Shown: one piece after another, positions 17,349 to 23,848 of the stretch
How the letters are laid out: every line of letters begins with the position of its first letter
Position numbering within the stretch: the stretch's first letter is position 1
DNA from: an uncultured Clostridia bacterium
GTDB taxonomy: Bacteria; Bacillota; Clostridia; Christensenellales; CAG-917
Direction: 5' to 3'
Assembly: GCA_947589635.1 (NCBI GenBank)
Contig: CANQCC010000003.1
Location: 1-38,193, forward strand
DNA: 38,193 nt
Translations under genes and position numbers: made by a program
The notes under the pieces: generated by a model
Database searches by the model: none
What the model was told of the DNA's origin: nothing
Seen by the model: only the letters and a program-made list of their open reading frames with translations

Positions 17349-20183
17349 TCAGTCCTTTTTGCCGAACATTTTCTTGAAAAGTCCGCGTTTTTGGGGCGCC
17401 TCTTTTTCCTCGACGGACAGCACTTTATAGCCTTCCGCCTCTATTGCCTGTACGATGGGCGAGTAGTCAATGCCGTCCTCAAGCGTGACCTCGGTGGTCC
17501 CGCTCACGTGCGAGGAGTTTACGCTTTTGACATTCGCCGCTCTTCTTACGGCGTCGTTGACGTGCGCTTCGCAGTGGCCGCACATCATGCCGTCCACTCT
17601 CAAAATAAGTTGTTTCATGTTTATGCCTCCGCAAATATTATTTTCGTAATTTTTCTCGTTCTTAGCGGGAGTGTCGCTGCGATTTTCCTCGTCCTCGGCG
17701 GGAGTATCTTCGTCGCCGTCCCGATTGGGCAGAGCGGTTATTTGCTCGCTCTCATTTTGCTTCTCGTAAGCGGCGCAGTTACCCGTCGTATCCTGCGCGT
17801 CGTCCTTGTCCTCGGGCATATCCCGCTTGTCTTCTTCTCCGCTTGCCGAGTCCTGCAACGCGTTTTCGCTTTGGGAGGGAAGGGCGGAGCCGTTTGCGTC
17901 GATGCTCTCTTCGGGGATGGCTTTCTTTGGCTTGAACAGATTTATGGTCAGCGCGTTAAGCACCACCGATACGCTTGAGACGCTCATCGCAAGCGAGCCT
18001 ATCATGGGATTTATCTTCAGCGCGGGGTTAGCGTAGGACAGCGCGCCCGTGGCGAACACCACGCACACCAGATTGTAGAAAAACGCCCAGAACAGTCCGA
18101 GTTTTATCGTGGCGAGGGTGCGCTTTGACAGCGCTATGACGTTAAGCACGTCCATAAGGTCGTTTCTCAGCAGCACGATATCCGCGCTTTCCACTGCGAC
18201 GTCGCTTCCGCCGCCTATCGCTATGCCAAGGTCCGCCGCCGCAAGCGCGGGCGCGTCGTTGACTCCGTCGCCGACCATAGCGACAAGATGCTTGCCGTCC
18301 TTTTTCAAGCCGTTTATGACGTCTTGTTTTTCTTCGGGGCGGACGTCGGATATGACCTCGCTTATTCCCACTTCGCGCGCGATCGCCTGAGAGGTGGCTC
18401 TGTTGTCTCCGGTAAGCATTATCACTTTGACGCCTCGCTTTTCAAGTTCCCGCACGGCAAGAGCGGACGTGGGTTTGACCTTGTCCTTTATCGAAAGCAG
18501 AGCGGCAAGTTTGCTGTCTTTAAGCACGGCGAGAGGGGTCTTGCCCTCGTTTGCCCACGCGGTTGCAGCGCTCAGCTCCCGTTCGTTTATGCCCTCTTCC
18601 AGGGCGGCGGCGAGGTTGCCTATAAAGTAGGCGTGCCCGTCCACGTTTCCGCTTAGCCCTTTGCCCGCAAGCGCCTGATAATCGCGCGCGTCTTTTAAGT
18701 TCGCGCCGCGTGCGCGCGCGTATTGCACTATGGCAAGCGCAAGCGGATGTTCGGACATACTCTCTATCGAGTACAGCGCGCCGAGGGCGTCCTCGTCGAA
18801 TGCCAAATAGTCCACGACGGAGGGTTTGCCCACGGTGAGCGTGCCCGTCTTGTCAAGCACTACTGTAGTGATGAGATGCGCCATTTCGAGGATCTGAGCG
18901 TTTTTTATAAGCAATCCGTTTTCGGCGCCTTTGCCCGTGCCCACCATGATGGCGACCGGGGTCGCAAGTCCAAGCGCGCAAGGGCAGGCGATGACCACTA
19001 CGGTTATCGCGAAGTTGAGGCTTGCCTCGAAGCCCGCGCCGGCTATCATATTGGCTGCGAAAGTTATCGCCGCGATGATAAAGATTATGGGCACAAACAC
19101 GCCGGAAATCTTGTCCGCAAGGCGGGATATGGGCGCTTTGGAATTGCTTGCCTCGTCCACAAGGCGAATTATGTTTGCGATGGACGTGTCCTCGCCGACC
19201 TTGCTTGCGCGCATCGTGAAGTAGCCCGCCGTAACCATGGTCGAGGAAAATACTTCGTCGCCCTCGCCCCTGTATACGGGGACGCTCTCGCCCGTGATGT
19301 TTGATTGATCCAGCGATCCGCCTCCGCTTATCACCTCGCCGTCCACGGGGACAAGTTCGCCCGCGCGCACCGCGAGGATATCTCCTACGCGCACGTCTTC
19401 TGCGGGGACTTCGACCTCTTGCCCGTCGCGCAGCACGTTCGCGCGCTTCGGGGACAGGTCCATAAGGCGGGATATGGCGGCGGTCGTCTTGCGCTTTGAC
19501 AGCCCCTCGAGATATTTGCCGAGGCTGACGAGGGTAAGTATCATCCCCGCCGACTCAAAGTAAAGATTGTCGCAATATGTGTGCAGCGTATGTGTATATT
19601 TTTCTACGTTCACGCCGTTTGCTATGTTGGCTTGCGCGAAGGACAGCATGAACAGAGCGAATACGCCGTACAGCACGCTTGCCGTCGCGCCTATCGCGAT
19701 AAGCGAATCCATGTTCGGTTTGCCCTTGAACAGCTTTTTGAAGCCCGACCCGAAATAGCCGCGATATATGAACAATATCGGCAGCACAAGGACAAGCTGA
19801 ACAAGCGCGAACCCTACGGGATTTTTAACATGATCCAAAAACGCGGGAGCGGGGAAGTGCCACATCATGTTTCCCATGCTGAAATACATCAGGATGAGAA
19901 GCAGCACTACGCACGCAAGCAATTTTGCAAGCGGCGCGTACTTATTTTCCTCGCCTTCGGAAACGACGCTTTTTTCTCCTTCTACGTGCGCCTTATAACC
20001 CGCTTTTTTCACCGCCTTTTCAATTTCGGATACGCTTAAAGAGTCGTCAAAGACGACTTCCATGCTGTTCGCGAGCAAGTTGACGTTGACGCTCTGCACC
20101 CCGCCGAGCGCCTCAACCGCCTTTTGGACGTGAGCCTGACACGCGGCGCACGTCATACCCTCGACGGCGAACTTTTTTTTCAA
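17349..20183 (-). CDS. copA: Cu(I)-translocating P1B-1 ATPase with N- and C-terminal HMA domains
   Basis: GMTCAAC, TGES, CPCALG, DKTGT, SEHPL, GDGVND, YN and MxxSS motifs; C-terminal GMMCGHC after an acidic linker; TTG start overlaps the csoR stop. Confidence 0.95.
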   Translation of the reverse strand: MKKKFAVEGMTCAACQAHVQKAVEALGGVQSVNVNLLANSMEVVFDDSLSVSEIEKAVKKAGYKAHVEGEKSVVSEGEENKYAPLAKLLACVVLLLILMYFSMGNMMWHFPAPAFLDHVKNPVGFALVQLVLVLPILFIYRGYFGSGFKKLFKGKPNMDSLIAIGATASVLYGVFALFMLSFAQANIANGVNVEKYTHTLHTYCDNLYFESAGMILTLVSLGKYLEGLSKRKTTAAISRLMDLSPKRANVLRDGQEVEVPAEDVRVGDILAVRAGELVPVDGEVISGGGSLDQSNITGESVPVYRGEGDEVFSSTMVTAGYFTMRASKVGEDTSIANIIRLVDEASNSKAPISRLADKISGVFVPIIFIIAAITFAANMIAGAGFEASLNFAITVVVIACPCALGLATPVAIMVGTGKGAENGLLIKNAQILEMAHLITTVVLDKTGTLTVGKPSVVDYLAFDEDALGALYSIESMSEHPLALAIVQYARARGANLKDARDYQALAGKGLSGNVDGHAYFIGNLAAALEEGINERELSAATAWANEGKTPLAVLKDSKLAALLSIKDKVKPTSALAVRELEKRGVKVIMLTGDNRATSQAIAREVGISEVISDVRPEEKQDVINGLKKDGKHLVAMVGDGVNDAPALAAADLGIAIGGGSDVAVESADIVLLRNDLMDVLNVIALSKRTLATIKLGLFWAFFYNLVCVVFATGALSYANPALKINPMIGSLAMSVSSVSVVLNALTINLFKPKKAIPEESIDANGSALPSQSENALQDSASGEEDKRDMPEDKDDAQDTTGNCAAYEKQNESEQITALPNRDGDEDTPAEDEENRSDTPAKNEKNYENNICGGINMKQLILRVDGMMCGHCEAHVNDAVRRAANVKSVNSSHVSGTTEVTLEDGIDYSPIVQAIEAEGYKVLSVEEKEAPQKRGLFKKMFGKKD

Positions 20184-20791
20184 TGGCGATACCTCTTGTA
20201 CATGGTCAGAAATTCTTTTACGGCGTTTTCGTCTCCCGCCTTGATGAGGGGAGCGACGTCGTTTTGCAGGTGGTTTTCAAGCACATACTCGCACAGGTCG
20301 TCCACCGCAAGCCTTATGCCGTTTAGCTCGATGAGGATATCCTCGCAATAGGCGTCCTCGTTGACCATGGCGCGTACGTCCTCCACGCTGTCAAGGATCG
20401 CGTCGAGGCCGGCGATCAGATTTGTCTTGTAGTCTGCCGCGCGCTTGTCCGACCCCGCGAGAGAGGCGAGCTCTCCGCCCGTCTTCTTAAGCCTGAGCAA
20501 ACCGAGGATCTCCTTGACGGCGCCCTCGTCGTCCGCCCCTATGCGCGGAGATATGCAGTTTGTGAAATGGCGCTCGAGAAGCACGTCAGACATGCCTTTC
20601 GCCGCGCTGCGGATAGCGCTGAGTTGCACGAGGACATCCTCGCAATACCTGTCTGCGAGCATCATCTTTCTTACGCCGCCCGTTTGTCCCGCTATGCGAT
20701 TGAGGCGGGATGTCAACGTCTTTTTGTAGTCCGCGCTGCGAACCGTCTTTTTTCTGCCGCATTCGGGGCAGGCCGAAGTCGATTTTTTCAT
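20180..20791 (-). CDS. csoR: CsoR/RcnR-family metal-sensing repressor with two tandem CsoR domains
   Basis: Repeat 1 RLNRIAGQ...C50-x24-H75-x3-C79; repeat 2 offset by 99 aa with C149, H174, D178; directly upstream of copA. Confidence 0.88.
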   Translation of the reverse strand: MKKSTSACPECGRKKTVRSADYKKTLTSRLNRIAGQTGGVRKMMLADRYCEDVLVQLSAIRSAAKGMSDVLLERHFTNCISPRIGADDEGAVKEILGLLRLKKTGGELASLAGSDKRAADYKTNLIAGLDAILDSVEDVRAMVNEDAYCEDILIELNGIRLAVDDLCEYVLENHLQNDVAPLIKAGDENAVKEFLTMYKRYRH

Positions 20792-20843
20792 AGTTCCCTC
20801 TTTTTTGCGCCCGCATTCGAGCGCGTTTTATTTGCTATCAGAT

Positions 20844-20872
20844 ATCCTATACCAGTAATGGGTATAAGTCAA
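20844..20872 (-). promoter_or_regulatory. Sigma-A promoter with overlapping CsoR-type operator
   Basis: Minus strand TTGACT-17-TAGGAT; palindrome TATACC-agtaatg-GGTATA (20848-20866) fills the spacer, like the ATACC..GGTAT CsoR operators of Firmicutes. Confidence 0.8.
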
Positions 20873-21023
20873 GACTTTCTCGAAAATTTGTCAAATAATT
20901 TTTTCCTTTAACATATCAATTTATGCGGGACGGAGAAAAAAGTTTAATGATTTTTTAGGATTTTGGCGGTCTATATACGTATATTTATATGTATAACGTA
21001 AAATCGGAAGGTATAAGCGCAAA

Positions 21024-22790
21024 ATGAGTCAGGGTTTCACCCCGGAGTTTTTGGAAGAACTCAAATTCAAATGCGACATTGTCGAGATAATTTCCGGGTA
21101 CGTTCCTCTTCAGAAGAAGGGCGGGCGTTATTTCGGCTGTTGTCCCTTCCACAGCGAGAAGACCGGCTCTTTTTGCGTGAATCAGGCGGACGGGTTTTAT
21201 CACTGCTTTGGCTGCGGCGCAAGCGGCGACGTCATCAAGTTTATCATGGAGATAGAATCCGTCAGCTTTTTCGACGCGGTCAAGTATCTTGCGGCTAAGG
21301 TTGGACTTCCACTTCCCGAGATGAAGCTCGATCCCGACTACGGCAAGAAGAAGGAGCGCCGCGAAGTGCTTAAGGAAGCCATGCGCGAGGCTGCGAAATA
21401 TTATCGTCAAAACCTCCTTGACCCCGAAAAGGGCAAAGACGCAAGGGAATATCTGGCGTCCCGCGGCATCGACGACGAGGTGGCAAAGCGCTACGGCCTT
21501 GGGCTGTCCACGGACTATGACAGTCTTGTGCGCTATCTTCGCTATAAGGGATATAAACTTGCGGACCTTGCCGAGTGCGGGCTCATCGCAAGCGCGGATC
21601 ATCCGTCCGACGCCTTCGCAAACAGAATTATAGTGCCCATAATCAACTCCATGGACGAGGTCGTCGCGTTTGGCGGCCGCATTTATCACGGCGAGACGGA
21701 AGTCGCCAAATACAAAAACTCCACCAACACGCCGCTGTTTGACAAAAGCCGCATACTCTTTGGCGTAAACTACGTCAAGCGCGACCGCAAGGCGGGGGAA
21801 CTCAAGAAAGATTCGCTTATCCTTGTCGAGGGCTATATGGACGTCATCGCGCTTGGCGCTGCGGGCATACTCGGCGCGGTAGCGGGCATGGGCACGGCGC
21901 TTACCGAGGGGCAGGCGCGAGACCTCAAGAGGCTTACCGAGCGCGTGTATGTGTGCTATGACGGCGACGGCGCCGGGAGGAAGGCGGCGGACAAAAATCC
22001 CGACGTGCTTGTAGCGGCGGGAGTGGACGTACGCGTCGTGACTCTTCCCGACGGAAAGGACCCCGACGAGACCGTTCGCAGCGAAGGCGCGGCGGCGTTT
22101 GAAAGATATCTTGACGAGGCGCTTCCCGCGGTTGAATACAAACTTAAACGCATAGAAGACGCAAGCGAGCTTGCCTCTCTCGACGGCAGATCTAAGTACG
22201 CAAAGGCGGCGGCGCAGGTGCTTAGAGGCATATCAGACCCGTCTCAGCGCGCGGTGTACGTAGCGGAAGTCGCAAAAAAGAGCGGCCTTGGCGAGGAAAG
22301 ACTGGAGGCGCTGCTTGCAAGCTCCCGCCCCCGCGACGAGCATGCGCCGACTCCGCAAAAGGCGCCCGTCGACCCAAGGATAGTGCGCGCATCCCGCGTG
22401 GTCACGGCGGCGCTTATAAGAAAGGAGAGCTACGCCCCTAAGGACGGCGTAAAAGAGGAGTGGTTGGCGCTTCCCGAACACGCGCGCATTTTCGAGGCGC
22501 TTTTGACAAACGAAAACTTTTCCGTAGGCAGCGTTTTCAGCTATCTGGAGCCGTGCGAAGAGATCGACAGACTTATCGCGCAACAGCTTCCCGACGACCC
22601 GGCGACGGCGAAGAGGCTTTACGACGATTGCGTGCTGTGCATAGCCGACGGCTATATTGCCGCGCGACTAAGGGAGCTCAACGCCAAATACGGATCGCTT
22701 ACCGACCCCGCCGAGAAGAGAGCGACGGTAGAGGAGATAACAAAATTGCAAAAACAGCTCAAATCACGGTATCTTACCGACAAGCTTTGA
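21024..22790 (+). CDS. dnaG: DNA primase
   Basis: CHC2 zinc finger CPFH..EKT...HCFGC, NRIIVP, FGGR, KYKNS, TOPRIM VEGYMD and [13 protein letters not shown]. Confidence 0.97.
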
Positions 22791-22801
22791 TAGGAGGAGA
22801 A

Positions 22802-23848
22802 ATGGACAGAGAACAACTTCTTAAACAGGAGATCGACAAGATCGTAGCGGCAAATAAAGAGAGCGGCTCCGTCAGCGAGGACGAGATAATGAAGAGGCTG
22901 GAGCACCTCAATGCCACCGCCGAGGATATGGAAGTGGTGTTTAAGGCGCTCGGCGACGCGGGCATCACTCTTATAGAATCTCAGGAAGACGACGTCACAG
23001 ACATCAATACCATGGTGGACGGCACCGTGGACGACTCCGTCAAGATATACCTCAAGGAGATAGGCAAAGTGCCCCTTCTCACCGCGGAGCAGGAGATAGA
23101 GCTTGCAAAGCGCATGGAACAGGGCGACGAAGAGGCCAAGGCGACGCTCAGCGAGGCGAACCTAAGGCTTGTCGTGTCCATCGCCAAGCGCTACGTCGGA
23201 AGAGGCATGCAATTCCTCGACCTCATTCAGGAGGGCAACATGGGGCTTATGAAGGCGGTCGACAAGTTCGACTATACCAAGGGCTTCAAGTTTTCCACGT
23301 ACGCGACCTGGTGGATAAGGCAGTCCATAACCCGCGCCATAGCGGACCAGGCAAGGACGATACGCATCCCGGTACATATGGTGGAGACCATAAACAAGCA
23401 GGTCCGCGCCACCCGCCACTTGCTGCAACAGCTCGGAAGAGAGCCAAGCCCCGAGGAGATCGCCGAATATCTCAATTGCCCCGTGGAGCGCGTGCGCGAA
23501 ATACAGAAGATAGCGCAGGACCCCGTGTCCCTCGAAACGCCTATCGGCGAGGAGGAGGACAGCCACCTCGGCGACTTCATAGAGGACAACACCGCGCTCT
23601 CCCCAAGCGACGTCGCGGAAAGCAATATGCTTAAGGAACAGCTTATTCAGGTGCTCAACACCCTCACCCCGCGCGAGGAGAAGGTGCTGAGGCTTCGTTA
23701 CGGCCTCGACGACAGCCACCCGCGCACCCTCGAGGAAGTGGGCAAGGAGTTTAACGTCACGAGAGAGCGTATTCGACAGATAGAGGCAAAGGCGCTCCGC
23801 AAACTGCGCCACCCCAACCGCCTCAAGAGGCTGAAGGACTTCGACTGA
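22802..23848 (+). CDS. sigA: RNA polymerase primary sigma factor SigA/RpoD
   Basis: [59 protein letters not shown]; true start ATG 22802 after AGGAGG. Confidence 0.97.

Follow-up and report, generated by a model that had tools for sequence, protein, structure and literature searches.

Within the window (the whole stretch of 38,193 nt of DNA that was analysed, from a gut Clostridia bacterium) lies a csoR gene that encodes two CsoR protomers fused in a single chain. The tandem gene is real. Comparison with related genomes places its origin in a duplication that is lineage-specific and arose within the genus. The product is probably a functional two-repeat pseudo-dimer, acting as a Cu(I)-responsive, autoregulating repressor of the bicistronic csoR–copA operon; it would have only half as many DNA faces and canonical metal sites as is usual.

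The two-repeat gene and its operon

The elements of the locus are itemized below, starting with the gene and its parts.

20180..20791, minus strand: tandem csoR gene, 203 codons and a TGA stop, with PF02583 twice
20480..20791, minus strand: repeat 1, residues 1–104, with helices at 20–45, 50–85 and 89–104
20432..20479, minus strand: linker, residues 105–120, GGELASLAGSDKRAAD, of low model confidence and without Cys
20183..20431, minus strand: repeat 2, residues 121–203, with helices at 121–144, 149–184 and 188–202
17349..20183, minus strand: copA, encoding a P1B-type ATPase of 944 aa that contains a CPC motif; it is the operon's second gene and presumed regulated target
20795..20800, minus strand: Shine–Dalgarno-like GAGGGA, 3 nt upstream of the ATG
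20848..20866, minus strand: candidate CsoR-type operator, the inverted repeat TATACC-cattact-GGTATA (N7)
20844..20872, minus strand: sigma-70-like promoter, TTGACT (20872)–17 nt–TAGGAT (20844), the operator filling the spacer

The 203-aa protein matches PF02583 (CsoR/RcnR, DUF156) in two stretches with 117.7 bits, against a cut-off of 22.8. Scored singly in the genome, repeat 1 (20495–20725) reaches 77.8 bits and repeat 2 (20195–20428) 43.6 bits, the latter about twice the cut-off. When the chain is aligned with itself, without gaps and shifted by 99 residues, the same amino acid recurs at 37 of 104 positions; the runner-up offset gives 14, and none of 2000 shuffles reached 37. The corresponding offset of 297 in the DNA gives 152/312 identical nucleotides (48.7%), compared with 27.8 ± 2.7% at the remaining in-frame offsets. 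The internal duplication was first proposed from the sequence alone, and the original prediction of a real, in-frame two-repeat CsoR with a canonical repeat 1 and an ungapped 99-residue offset is upheld. The residues that it named (C8, C11, C50, H75, C79, C149, C167, H174 and D178) are all in place, as are RLNRIAGQ in repeat 1 and GLDAILDS in repeat 2.

Repeat 1 begins with a CPEC tail and carries a complete DNA face (R29, R32, G35, Q36 and Q56) together with the sensor set Y49–C50, H75, C79 and E94; the net charge of its core is +7. Repeat 2 retains Y148–C149, H174 and E193 and has an extra cysteine, C167. Its DNA-face positions are now G128, A131, D134, S135 and E155, the Cys at position Z has become D178, the cysteines of its former N-terminal tail are gone and its core has a net charge of −10. 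Separate translation of repeat 2 was considered and rejected: no stop codon separates the repeats, and Met is absent between residue 67 and M141.

The csoR stop codon overlaps the TTG start of copA (TTGA), and the identical overlap occurs in G016, a genome of the same genus. CopA matches E1-E2_ATPase (200 bits), Hydrolase and two HMA domains, and contains the motif ACPCALGLATP. The csoR–copA operon has no separate copZ.

A promoter scan of 20700–21050 returned a single site with 9/12 matches (shuffles 0.8 ± 1.1), and is weak by itself. The relatives conserve the position of the promoter and its −35 element, and homologous operators occupy the same promoter position. The closest relatives have the operator ATACCC-N5-GGGTAT with a TATAAT −10 element; here one G of the right arm is replaced by T and the −10 element is weaker. 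With that qualification, an operator within the promoter spacer, as originally proposed, stands. Regulation of csoR–copA may be leaky, since the operator has one G:C pair fewer than in the relatives and the −10 element is weak. The pattern ATACC-N5-9-GGTAT occurs twice in the 1.41-Mb genome, one occurrence being that at 20848–20866, and seven times in the reversed control; the count alone is no evidence for the operator. The same genome-wide scan gave no sign of a wider regulon, and no RNA runs carrying the sequence were listed in a search of sequencing runs.

DNA face, metal sites and predicted assembly

Residue conservation was counted over 159 single-domain CsoR rows. R29 and G35 are kept in all 159, Q56 in 158, Q36 and C50 in 157 each, H75 in 153, C79 in 152 and R32 in 141 (with Lys in a further 10). 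At the equivalents of R29, R32, G35, Q36, C50, Q56, H75 and C79, repeat 2 has G, A, D, S, C, E, H and D respectively. The RLxR motif and the helix-2 Gln of the DNA face are thus present in repeat 1 (R29, R32 and Q56) and absent from repeat 2 (G128, A131 and E155). Excerpts of the studies of NreA (PMC12724321) and Streptomyces lividans CsoR (PMC3902906) report that Ala at the equivalents of R29, R32 and Q56 abolishes repression or DNA binding. These are positions that are replaced in repeat 2, in agreement with the proposal that the second domain lacks DNA-binding residues.

The x-C-H-C fingerprint is intact in repeat 1 (C50/H75/C79) and broken in repeat 2 (C149/H174/D178). The second-shell Tyr and Glu of the Cu(I) site, called ‘nearly invariant’ in an excerpt of PMC11672702, align as Y49/E94 in repeat 1 and Y148/E193 in repeat 2. 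In the family, ligand X comes from one subunit and ligands Y and Z from its partner (PMC5016687 and PMC11672702, both in excerpt). Because of this rule the tandem would have a canonical site made up of C149, H75 and C79 and an altered site made up of C50, H174 and D178, an assignment, the same as in the original prediction, that holds only if the four-helix bundle is built from the repeats of a single chain.

The AF2 model of the monomer (pLDDT 89.6, pTM 0.84) has six helices arranged as two sets of three. Repeat 2 is modelled with pLDDT 94–98, and residues 101–120 with 61–68. In Foldseek searches of the PDB each repeat superposes on CsoR 4m1p (TM by target 0.82; rmsd 1.8 over 88 columns, 35% identity) and on InrS 5fmn (0.85), with a TM by target of 0.76 for 2hh7; the E-values are all >0.001, the best being 0.02. 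No solved PDB chain of the two-repeat form was found by Foldseek at E ≤ 0.001. The compactness of the predicted monomer fits a single-chain pseudo-dimer. A two-copy complex prediction gave a median of 0.40 against a mark of 0.42, with controls at 0.00, and counts neither for nor against the proposal. Known CsoRs are described, in the excerpt of PMC11672702, as D2 homotetramers of ~90–100-residue protomers. The present chain is of 203 aa, and since its two repeats are unlike D2 symmetry is impossible.

In the proposed arrangement the two repeats of one chain would pack as an antiparallel four-helix-bundle ‘dimer’, and two chains would form a disc-like pseudo-tetramer. Repeat 1, present in two copies, would supply a single electropositive DNA face where the family normally has two. 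The particle would have two canonical Cu(I) sites (C149 with H75 and C79, beside the CPEC tail) instead of four, and two further, degenerate Cys/His/Asp sites. Free of metal, the protein would occupy the operator TATACC-N7-GGTATA within the promoter spacer, and it would be released when Cu(I), the presumed specific ligand, binds at the canonical sites. Repressors of the CsoR family have no classical DNA-binding motif and bind DNA in a mode that the excerpt of PMC12724321 describes as still poorly understood.

Among the closest known systems are the BsCsoR-type Cu(I) sensors (CsoR of Bacillus subtilis, S. lividans and G. thermodenitrificans, 4M1P). Repeat 1 has their full set of RLxR-I-x-GQ, Y–C, Q, H-x3-C and second-shell Glu, the gene likewise lies upstream of a P1B-1 CopA, and the promoter spacer contains an inverted-repeat operator. 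The present protein differs from them in having two protomers in one chain, the second without a DNA face or the Z Cys, so that at most half of the sites are canonical. There is also an analogy, and no more than that, with the functional asymmetry of CstR and the half-of-sites adducts of FrmR (PMC8643695, in excerpt), a non-equivalence that the tandem would make permanent. In CstR and FrmR the asymmetry is dynamic among identical subunits (PMC8643695, same excerpt), whereas in the tandem it is fixed in the sequence.

In a homotetramer each mutation appears four times, which makes it hard to ask why the family uses four sites with two faces and whether all the sites are equivalent. The tandem would be a naturally occurring asymmetric form of a regulator that is otherwise symmetric, with its halves genetically separated, one repeat having the DNA face and the two sites differing. 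It offers a scaffold for dissecting individual sites and faces, a way to learn if copper control of copA can be achieved with one face and two sites, and a compact asymmetric module for engineering.

Origin and fate of repeat 2

A careful tree, built from 44 rows, groups repeat 1 with repeat 2 as sisters (91/72). The pair lies beside the single-domain CsoR of G016 (90/67), within a starred five-row clade that also includes G007 and G008 (97/94). The branch lengths are 0.09 for G016, 0.88 for repeat 1 and 2.68 for repeat 2, the longest in the tree. A horizontal origin of repeat 2 was rejected, because its best match anywhere is repeat 1 (41% identity). Inspection of 19 same-genus loci revealed no tandem, both halves of the query matching one and the same ~90-aa place in 19/19, and the 400 other genomes of the order (401 sampled) have single domains only. 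Among 1.84 billion representatives only the protein itself was retrieved at E ≤ 1e-30, with no tandem orthologue, and its 90% cluster has one member on one contig. A homologue search with the single protein returned itself and three single-domain proteins of ~112 aa only. The related-locus search gave 10 loci, all of single-domain size, in MAGs of Clostridia, Actinomycetes and Chloroflexota. The gene would therefore have originated inside the genus by in-frame tandem duplication of ~297 bp of an ordinary csoR of ~104 aa.

At least nine other tandem PF02583 proteins, all from metagenomes, were found (P0005, P0006, P0011, P0015, P0018, P0029, P0102, P0143 and P0154), with two PF02583 stretches in 174–241 aa. 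The best 120 of 8000 scored candidates in a tandem-alignment search were mostly single-domain; four were tandem, P0154 being the sole new one, and these numbers are no measure of frequency. All nine are <35% identical to the present protein, and on the evidence of the 401 sampled genomes this order is the source of none. Most derive from separate duplications, the two repeats being each other's sisters in five or more of the nine. The ESM Atlas yielded only ~100-aa PF02583 clusters (score 0.83, no more than a lead) and no large two-repeat cluster. That no CsoR of this architecture had been described was part of the original prediction. It is true of the papers, as far as the available portions of the literature go: none was found that describes a CsoR in tandem, fused or two-domain form, and supplements may list examples (e.g. 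the sequence-network tables of PMC8643695). It does not extend to the databases, which hold these nine or more.

The likeness among the tandems lies in what is lost. Counting the present protein, a single-domain HMM scores repeat 1 above repeat 2 in 10/10, and repeat 2 is always the more diverged. The DNA face is mostly lost from repeat 2 (residues kept in repeat 1 versus repeat 2: R29, R32 and G35 each 10 vs 2, Q36 9 vs 3, Q56 10 vs 4), and the sensor residues are retained (C50 10 vs 8, H75 8 vs 9, C79 9 vs 8). D178 and C167 are specific to the present protein among the 10. There are no grounds to call D178 conserved: besides the lack of a tandem orthologue in which to find it, the equivalent residue in the nine others is Cys in eight and Trp in one, so that none has Asp at Z of repeat 2. 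The recurrence of one pattern of loss in independently fused relatives suggests a general rule for how the fold tolerates symmetry breaking. A broader reading is possible, and we put it forward tentatively. Fusion of CsoR protomers may be a recurrent route, taken in at least five to eight independent duplications, each giving a ‘one-faced’ repressor. The N-terminal repeat would keep the DNA face, while the C-terminal repeat, the start of its helix 1 being tethered by the linker, would lose it and stay a sensor and bundle partner, so hard-wiring half-of-sites asymmetry. The present gene would be the most extreme seen, with a face of −10 against +7 and one canonical Cu(I) site per chain.

The same divergence could also mean that repeat 2 is a passenger, a redundant C-terminal copy drifting in early decay after a recent in-frame duplication. 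Only repeat 1 would then work, repeat 2 being at most an obligatory bundle partner, and D178, C167 and the acidity would have no function. The long branch (2.68 vs 0.88), the disappearance of six near-invariant residues and the status of the gene as a singleton lacking an orthologue are in keeping with decay, as is the greater divergence of repeat 2 in the nine other tandems, which is expected if the C-terminal copy is generally less constrained. We nevertheless consider decay rather unlikely. The frame of repeat 2 is free of stops and indels across 99 codons, whereas of 3000 simulations without constraint, run to an equal divergence, just 110 (~0.04) stayed stop-free, a comparison that ignores a possible benefit of translational coupling to copA. 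The identity between the repeats at codon positions 1, 2 and 3 is 0.53, 0.52 and 0.41, so that the first two are more conserved than the third. Repeat 2 is also modelled with confidence. The losses are selective, removing the DNA-face residues and sparing Y148, C149, H174 and E193, and tandems that arose independently show the same selectivity. Moreover, the swing in charge to −10 exceeds what mere loss of basic residues would give.

Improbable, and less likely than decay, is a role for repeat 2 as a second input, suggested in the original prediction as the sensing of another metal, in which the C50–H174–D178 site, perhaps with C167, would sense Zn, Ni, Co or a thiol-reactive signal and make the protein a two-signal repressor. 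The precedent is Salmonella FrmR (Cys35/His60/Glu64), which likewise has a carboxylate at Z with an X Cys and a Y His; according to the excerpt of PMC5016687, Glu64 is a putative ligand and FrmR binds Co(II), Zn(II) and Cu(I) in vitro. The restriction of D178 and C167 to this protein among the tandems also favours a special role. Yet the sole other gene of the operon is a Cu-type CPC ATPase, and the N-terminal His or Pro ‘W’ ligand of the Ni/Co and formaldehyde sensors is missing beside this site because the linker has no His, Cys or Pro. C167 is 7 residues from H174 on a continuous helix, and is probably too distant to share a metal.

The marks of other sensor classes are also missing from the chain. 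FrmR is a formaldehyde sensor that relies on an N-terminal Pro2 beside the X Cys; the tandem has Lys as its second residue, lies in a copA context and scores 51 with the NCBIfam FrmR model (cut-off 133). RcnR and InrS have an N-terminal His ‘W’ (H-C-H-H or H-C-H-C), and the present N-terminus, MKKSTS, has no His (NCBIfam RcnR 54.1 vs 138). CstR (x-C-x-C) has a non-His wedge at Y, where both repeats have His. The score for RicR (NCBIfam NF052430) is 77.2 bits against a cut-off of 175.

Assembly evidence for the fused gene

The gene probably encodes the single-chain copper repressor set out above, and its fusion is seen in other assemblies. In run X4, from another sample of the possible source study, a 693-nt contig covers 20373–21000 with no gaps and one differing letter, and therefore bridges the linker. 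In study P2, contigs of X5 (20098–20373) and X6 (20129–20324) join the C-terminal part of repeat 2 to copA; further contigs cover 20614–21000 and 20689–20944, leaving 20374–20613 uncovered.

An in silico join of two csoR alleles or of paralogues, made during assembly or binning, is very improbable, even though the source genome is a MAG (81% complete, in 141 contigs) and the only run to bridge the junction belongs to the study that is the possible source. The repeats share only 48.7% of their nucleotides, too little for any assembler k-mer to link them. The junction keeps the reading frame and has a linker of 16 residues, repeat 2 is closest to repeat 1 among 15 billion proteins, independent contigs in two studies carry repeat 2 fused to the start of copA, and the single-domain versions of other organisms appear in the same runs as separate contigs that are 297 and 293 nt shorter. 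The coverage in X8 (study P3) is confined to 20050–20091 and 20716–20970, with the junction outside. The GC3 values of repeat 1, repeat 2 and copA are alike (0.71, 0.75 and 0.69 respectively).

Organization of the csoR-copA operon

The chain of the tandem CsoR comprises repeat 1 (residues 1-104), a linker (105-120) and repeat 2 (121-203). The features of its locus in the window, all on the minus strand, are as follows.

20180..20791, minus strand: tandem csoR, an open reading frame of 203 codons with an ATG start
Preceding the csoR ATG, minus strand: GAGGGA, read from the sequence
17349..20183, minus strand: copA, 944-aa P-type ATPase with a TTG start, identified by Pfam and motif
20872-20844, minus strand: promoter-like site TTGACT-17-TAGGAT, the only one upstream in a motif scan
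20866-20848, minus strand: putative operator TATACC-cattact-GGTATA in the promoter spacer, read from the sequence

The TGA stop of csoR overlaps the TTG start of copA. The ATPase matches Pfam E1-E2_ATPase, HAD-hydrolase and two HMA domains and contains the motif ACPCALGLATP, and is therefore a copper-type CopA. The ORF that follows copA is convergent, so that the operon consists of csoR and copA. The second HMA (GMMCGHC) is seen by eye at the extreme C-terminus of CopA, beyond an extended acidic region of low complexity, an arrangement suggestive of a copZ fused onto copA; a separate copZ was not found in the operon. A two-HMA CopA of ~900 aa is also present in two relatives of the genus, G016 and G007 (L023, 1901-4606, and L024, 1775-4468, both minus strand), and is thus a feature of the genus, not confined to the source genome. 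Upstream of csoR and divergent from it are ORFs of 588 and then 462 aa (window 21024-23848, plus strand). Judged by eye, their translations resemble DnaG primase and a sigma factor of the RpoD type, the usual dnaG-rpoD gene pair.

The 203-aa protein matches PF02583 with 117.7 bits (cut-off 22.8 bits) in two stretches, of which the N-terminal scores 77.8 and the C-terminal 43.6 bits. At an ungapped offset of 99 residues the repeats share 37 of 104 residues, a number attained by none of 2000 shuffles; the second-best offset gives 14. The two-repeat CsoR of the original prediction is thus borne out, and all the residues named there are found at their positions. The DNA identity is 48.7% at an offset of 297 nt, against 27.8 +/- 2.7% for other in-frame offsets. 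The likeness becomes detectable at about residues 18 and 117, the first 20 codons of repeat 1 being no more similar to the linker than background.

Taken alone the promoter scan is weak, with 0.8 such sites in shuffles. At the same position the closest relatives (csoR loci L004, L005 and L006) have TTGACA-c-ATACCC-N5-GGGTAT-ATAAT, with consensus TTGACA and TATAAT elements and a perfect operator, and more distant members of the genus carry TATACCCC-N-GGGTATA close to their csoR starts. The layout matches that described for NreA, with the operator in the -35/-10 spacer (PMC12724321). An intact operator had been predicted for the tandem gene; it does lie in the promoter spacer, but its right arm (TGGTAT) has one G to T change relative to the relatives, so that it is slightly less symmetric than theirs, and the -10 element TAGGAT is weaker. 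Repressor and operator may have changed together. The whole genome contains two ATACC-N5-9-GGTAT sites, the other being at 12915-12929 of contig C6 (ATACCGATACGGTAT).

The source genome is a MAG of 1.41 Mb at 81% completeness, in which the window makes up one entire contig. Raised with the original prediction, the possibility that the fusion is an assembly artefact has the evidence against it. Sharing just 48.7% of their nucleotides, the repeats are too unlike to have been merged by an assembler via shared words, and GC3 is alike in repeat 1 (0.71), repeat 2 (0.75) and copA (0.69). A 693-nt contig from public run X4 (another sample, of a study that is possibly the source) spans 20373-21000 without gaps, and thus bridges the linker and the repeat junction. 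In a second study, contigs from runs X5 (20098-20373) and X6 (20129-20324) join the C-terminal part of repeat 2 to the start of copA, and further contigs carry repeat 1 and the promoter end; the junction is bridged in X4 alone, not in this study. The sole joints among the run contigs are of low identity and from other organisms, with the interval between copA and csoR motifs shorter by 297 or 293 nt; these are ordinary single-domain versions. In X5 and X6, short conserved motifs in the csoR-copA junctions of other organisms match window 20050-20653 at 90-95%; the shorter junctions in these gut samples indicate that single-domain relatives co-occur with the tandem-bearing species. The gene is a genuine, lineage-specific, single-chain two-repeat CsoR.

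Origin of the duplication and other tandem proteins

The protein finds a match in 20 of 24 same-genus genomes, and at each of the 19 loci inspected in relatives the two halves of the query fall on a single place of ~90 aa. The relatives' CsoR is a single-domain protein of roughly 100-115 aa, in most cases with copA directly after it. In an IQ-TREE domain tree of 44 rows the two repeats are sisters (91/72), adjoined by the single-domain protein of G016 (90/67), within a well-supported clade of five rows comprising the repeats, G016, G007 and G008 (97/94). The highest identity of repeat 2 to any sequence is 41%, with repeat 1. The duplication was therefore internal and occurred within the genus. 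The branches leading to the repeats are greatly accelerated: the lengths are 0.09 for G016, 0.64 for the stem, 0.88 for repeat 1 and 2.68 for repeat 2, and G016 is 72% identical to G007, 52% to repeat 1 and 36% to repeat 2.

PF02583 occurs in 183 of 401 genomes sampled from the order, 26 of which, including the source genome, match it more than once. Of the 25 besides the source genome, all but one have their matches at separate loci. The exception is G336, whose two complementary part-matches (contig C86, 27-143 and 422-526, minus strand; model positions 27-65 and 1-35) are separated by 279 nt at the end of one contig and look like a single csoR that has been interrupted or broken, not a tandem. 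Two adjacent in-frame PF02583 domains were found in the source genome alone among the 401. A HMMER search of 1.84 billion representatives returned 2769 matches at E <= 0.001 and no orthologue of the tandem, E <= 1e-30 being reached by the protein itself only.

Other two-repeat proteins do exist. The best 150 of the 2769 matches include eight (174-241 aa), and a profile search added P0154; each of these nine has two PF02583 stretches. All are of metagenome origin, and those listed by the profile search fall in clusters of 1-4 members. The architecture is thus not unique, but the original prediction's remark that no such CsoR had been described stands in that no paper describing tandem or fused CsoR proteins was found in full-text searches of the literature. 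In a tree of 107 rows the repeats are sisters in P0018, P0143, P0102, P0029 and P0006, P0011 and P0015 share one common duplication, and the tandem label requires eight changes for nine rows. Most of the fusions were therefore independent. Repeat 2 has the longer end branch in all nine, and against a single-domain HMM it scores below repeat 1 in 10 of 10 tandems, the present protein included.

Residues 94-160 of P0029, in repeat 2, also match Pfam PF10372 (40.6 bits, cut-off 27.2), as does P0011 weakly (21.3 bits). This family is CdaS_N, the N-terminal domain of the diadenylate cyclase CdaS, and the matches hint at either a relationship or a cross-match of the CsoR helical hairpin with CdaS_N.

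Divergence of repeat 2

Conservation was counted over 159 single-domain rows and the 10 tandems. Repeat 1 of the present protein has all eight residues listed.

Conservation of DNA-face and sensor residues (numbering of repeat 1; equivalents in repeat 2 at +99)
Residue; role; kept in single-domain rows (of 159); kept in repeat 1 (of 10 tandems); kept in repeat 2 (of 10 tandems); residue in repeat 2 of the present protein
R29; DNA face; 159; 10; 2; G
R32; DNA face; 141 (+10 K); 10; 2; A
G35; DNA face; 159; 10; 2; D
Q36; DNA face; 157; 9; 3; S
Q56; DNA face; 158; 10; 4; E
C50; sensor; 157; 10; 8; C
H75; sensor; 153; 8; 9; H
C79; sensor; 152; 9; 8; D

As the tandems form a small set that includes some non-independent cases, the bias is presented as a pattern and not as a statistical test. 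As predicted, repeat 2 is without the DNA-binding residues, having G128, A131 and E155 where R29, R32 and Q56 stand in repeat 1. The equivalents of these three have been tied to DNA binding by mutagenesis of NreA (PMC12724321) and of Streptomyces lividans CsoR; in the latter, operator binding needs the RLXR motif as well as Q81, which is fully conserved (PMC3902906). The net charge of the core is +7 in repeat 1 and -10 in repeat 2, against a mean of +0.9 for the single-domain rows. Repeat 2 retains C149 and H174 at the X and Y positions of the sensor fingerprint, Y148 before the X-Cys and E193 in helix 3. C149 and H174 correspond to first-shell ligands, and Y148 and E193 to the second-shell residues described for CsoR as 'nearly invariant Tyr and Glu' (PMC11672702). 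Conservation of D178, at position Z, did not emerge among the tandems: Asp occupies this position of repeat 2 in the present protein alone.

The main alternative, in which repeat 2 does no more than drift as a partner in the helical bundle, is unlikely. Contigs from other runs vary from the source by 0-1 letters and there is no orthologue for comparison. Repeat 2 has no stops and no indels over 99 codons, a stop-free frame being obtained in 110 of 3000 unconstrained simulations at the same divergence. Repeat-to-repeat likeness at codon positions 1, 2 and 3 is 0.53, 0.52 and 0.41, AF2 pLDDT block means across repeat 2 are 94-98, and its residue losses are selective rather than random. Together these favour selection for a folded repeat 2, but are not conclusive.

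Predicted structure and comparison with known sensors

The AF2 model, built from a 68-row alignment, has six helices (20-45, 50-85, 89-104, 121-144, 149-184 and 188-202), with mean pLDDT 89.6 and pTM 0.84, so that the mutual placement of the repeats is confident; it is uncertain in the linker only. Either repeat can be superposed on the structures of Cu(I)-CsoR (4m1p; TM by target 0.82) and of InrS (5fmn; 0.85), and the comparison found no two-repeat chain among solved structures. The repeats of one chain would most naturally pair as CsoR dimers do, in an antiparallel four-helix bundle. In the CsoR family one subunit supplies X, and its partner supplies Y and Z together with the N-terminal region (W) (PMC5016687; PMC11672702). 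If the intrachain bundle holds, this geometry fixes the composition of both sites. Site 1 would be fully canonical, formed by C149 of repeat 2 with H75, C79 and the CPEC-bearing N-terminal tail of repeat 1. Site 2 would be degenerate, with C50 of repeat 1 facing H174, D178 and the Cys-free linker. With this composition the losses of the Z-Cys and of the tail Cys both strike site 2, and C149, the sole ligand from repeat 2 in the canonical site, is retained.

A Cys-rich N-terminal tail with 2 to 5 or more Cys (CC, CGC, CCC or CxxCCxCC, for example) is present in all 18 complete same-genus or same-order CsoRs inspected (L004-L021), and P0007, another PF02583 database protein, has a long repeated extension containing CC. 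These tails may provide additional Cu(I) binding. The tail Cys of the tandem are those of CPEC (window 20759-20770), on repeat 1; the linker has none.

Each face of the CsoR tetramer holds two complete monomeric elements, with an electropositive tract from helix 1 to helix 1', and one operator is bound by two tetramers, one face each (PMC3902906). Both copies of repeat 1 can therefore share one face in a dimer of tandem chains, which would be a particle with one basic and one acidic face. In every case the DNA face is lost from the C-terminal repeat, and a plausible reason may be that the linker joins the start of helix 1, the site of RLxR. On balance the tandem probably functions as a Cu(I) repressor of copA, with a single DNA face and a single canonical site in each chain.

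The route from symmetric oligomer to pseudo-dimer by duplication and fusion is familiar in evolution. New here are such a fusion in the CsoR family, the consistent degeneration of repeat 2, and its extreme form in the present protein. The words fusion, tandem and two domains are absent from the main text of a 2021 network analysis of 32,476 PF02583 sequences (PMC8643695).

Repeat 1 has every sequence feature of a BsCsoR-type x-C-H-C copper sensor, with a fitting CopA and operator context. The whole tandem departs from the family description of a ~90-residue protomer in a D2 homotetramer (PMC11672702). It is distinguished from RcnR and InrS by the lack of an N-terminal His, from FrmR by the lack of Pro2, from CstR by His at Y, and from RicR by NCBIfam score; all NCBIfam scores are well under their cut-offs. 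Salmonella FrmR also has a carboxylate at Z, Glu64 (PMC5016687), where repeat 2 has D178. Sites within one dimer are reported to be non-equivalent in CstR, as a dynamic property, and in FrmR, where half-site adducts form (PMC8643695); in the tandem the sequence itself would encode this non-equivalence.
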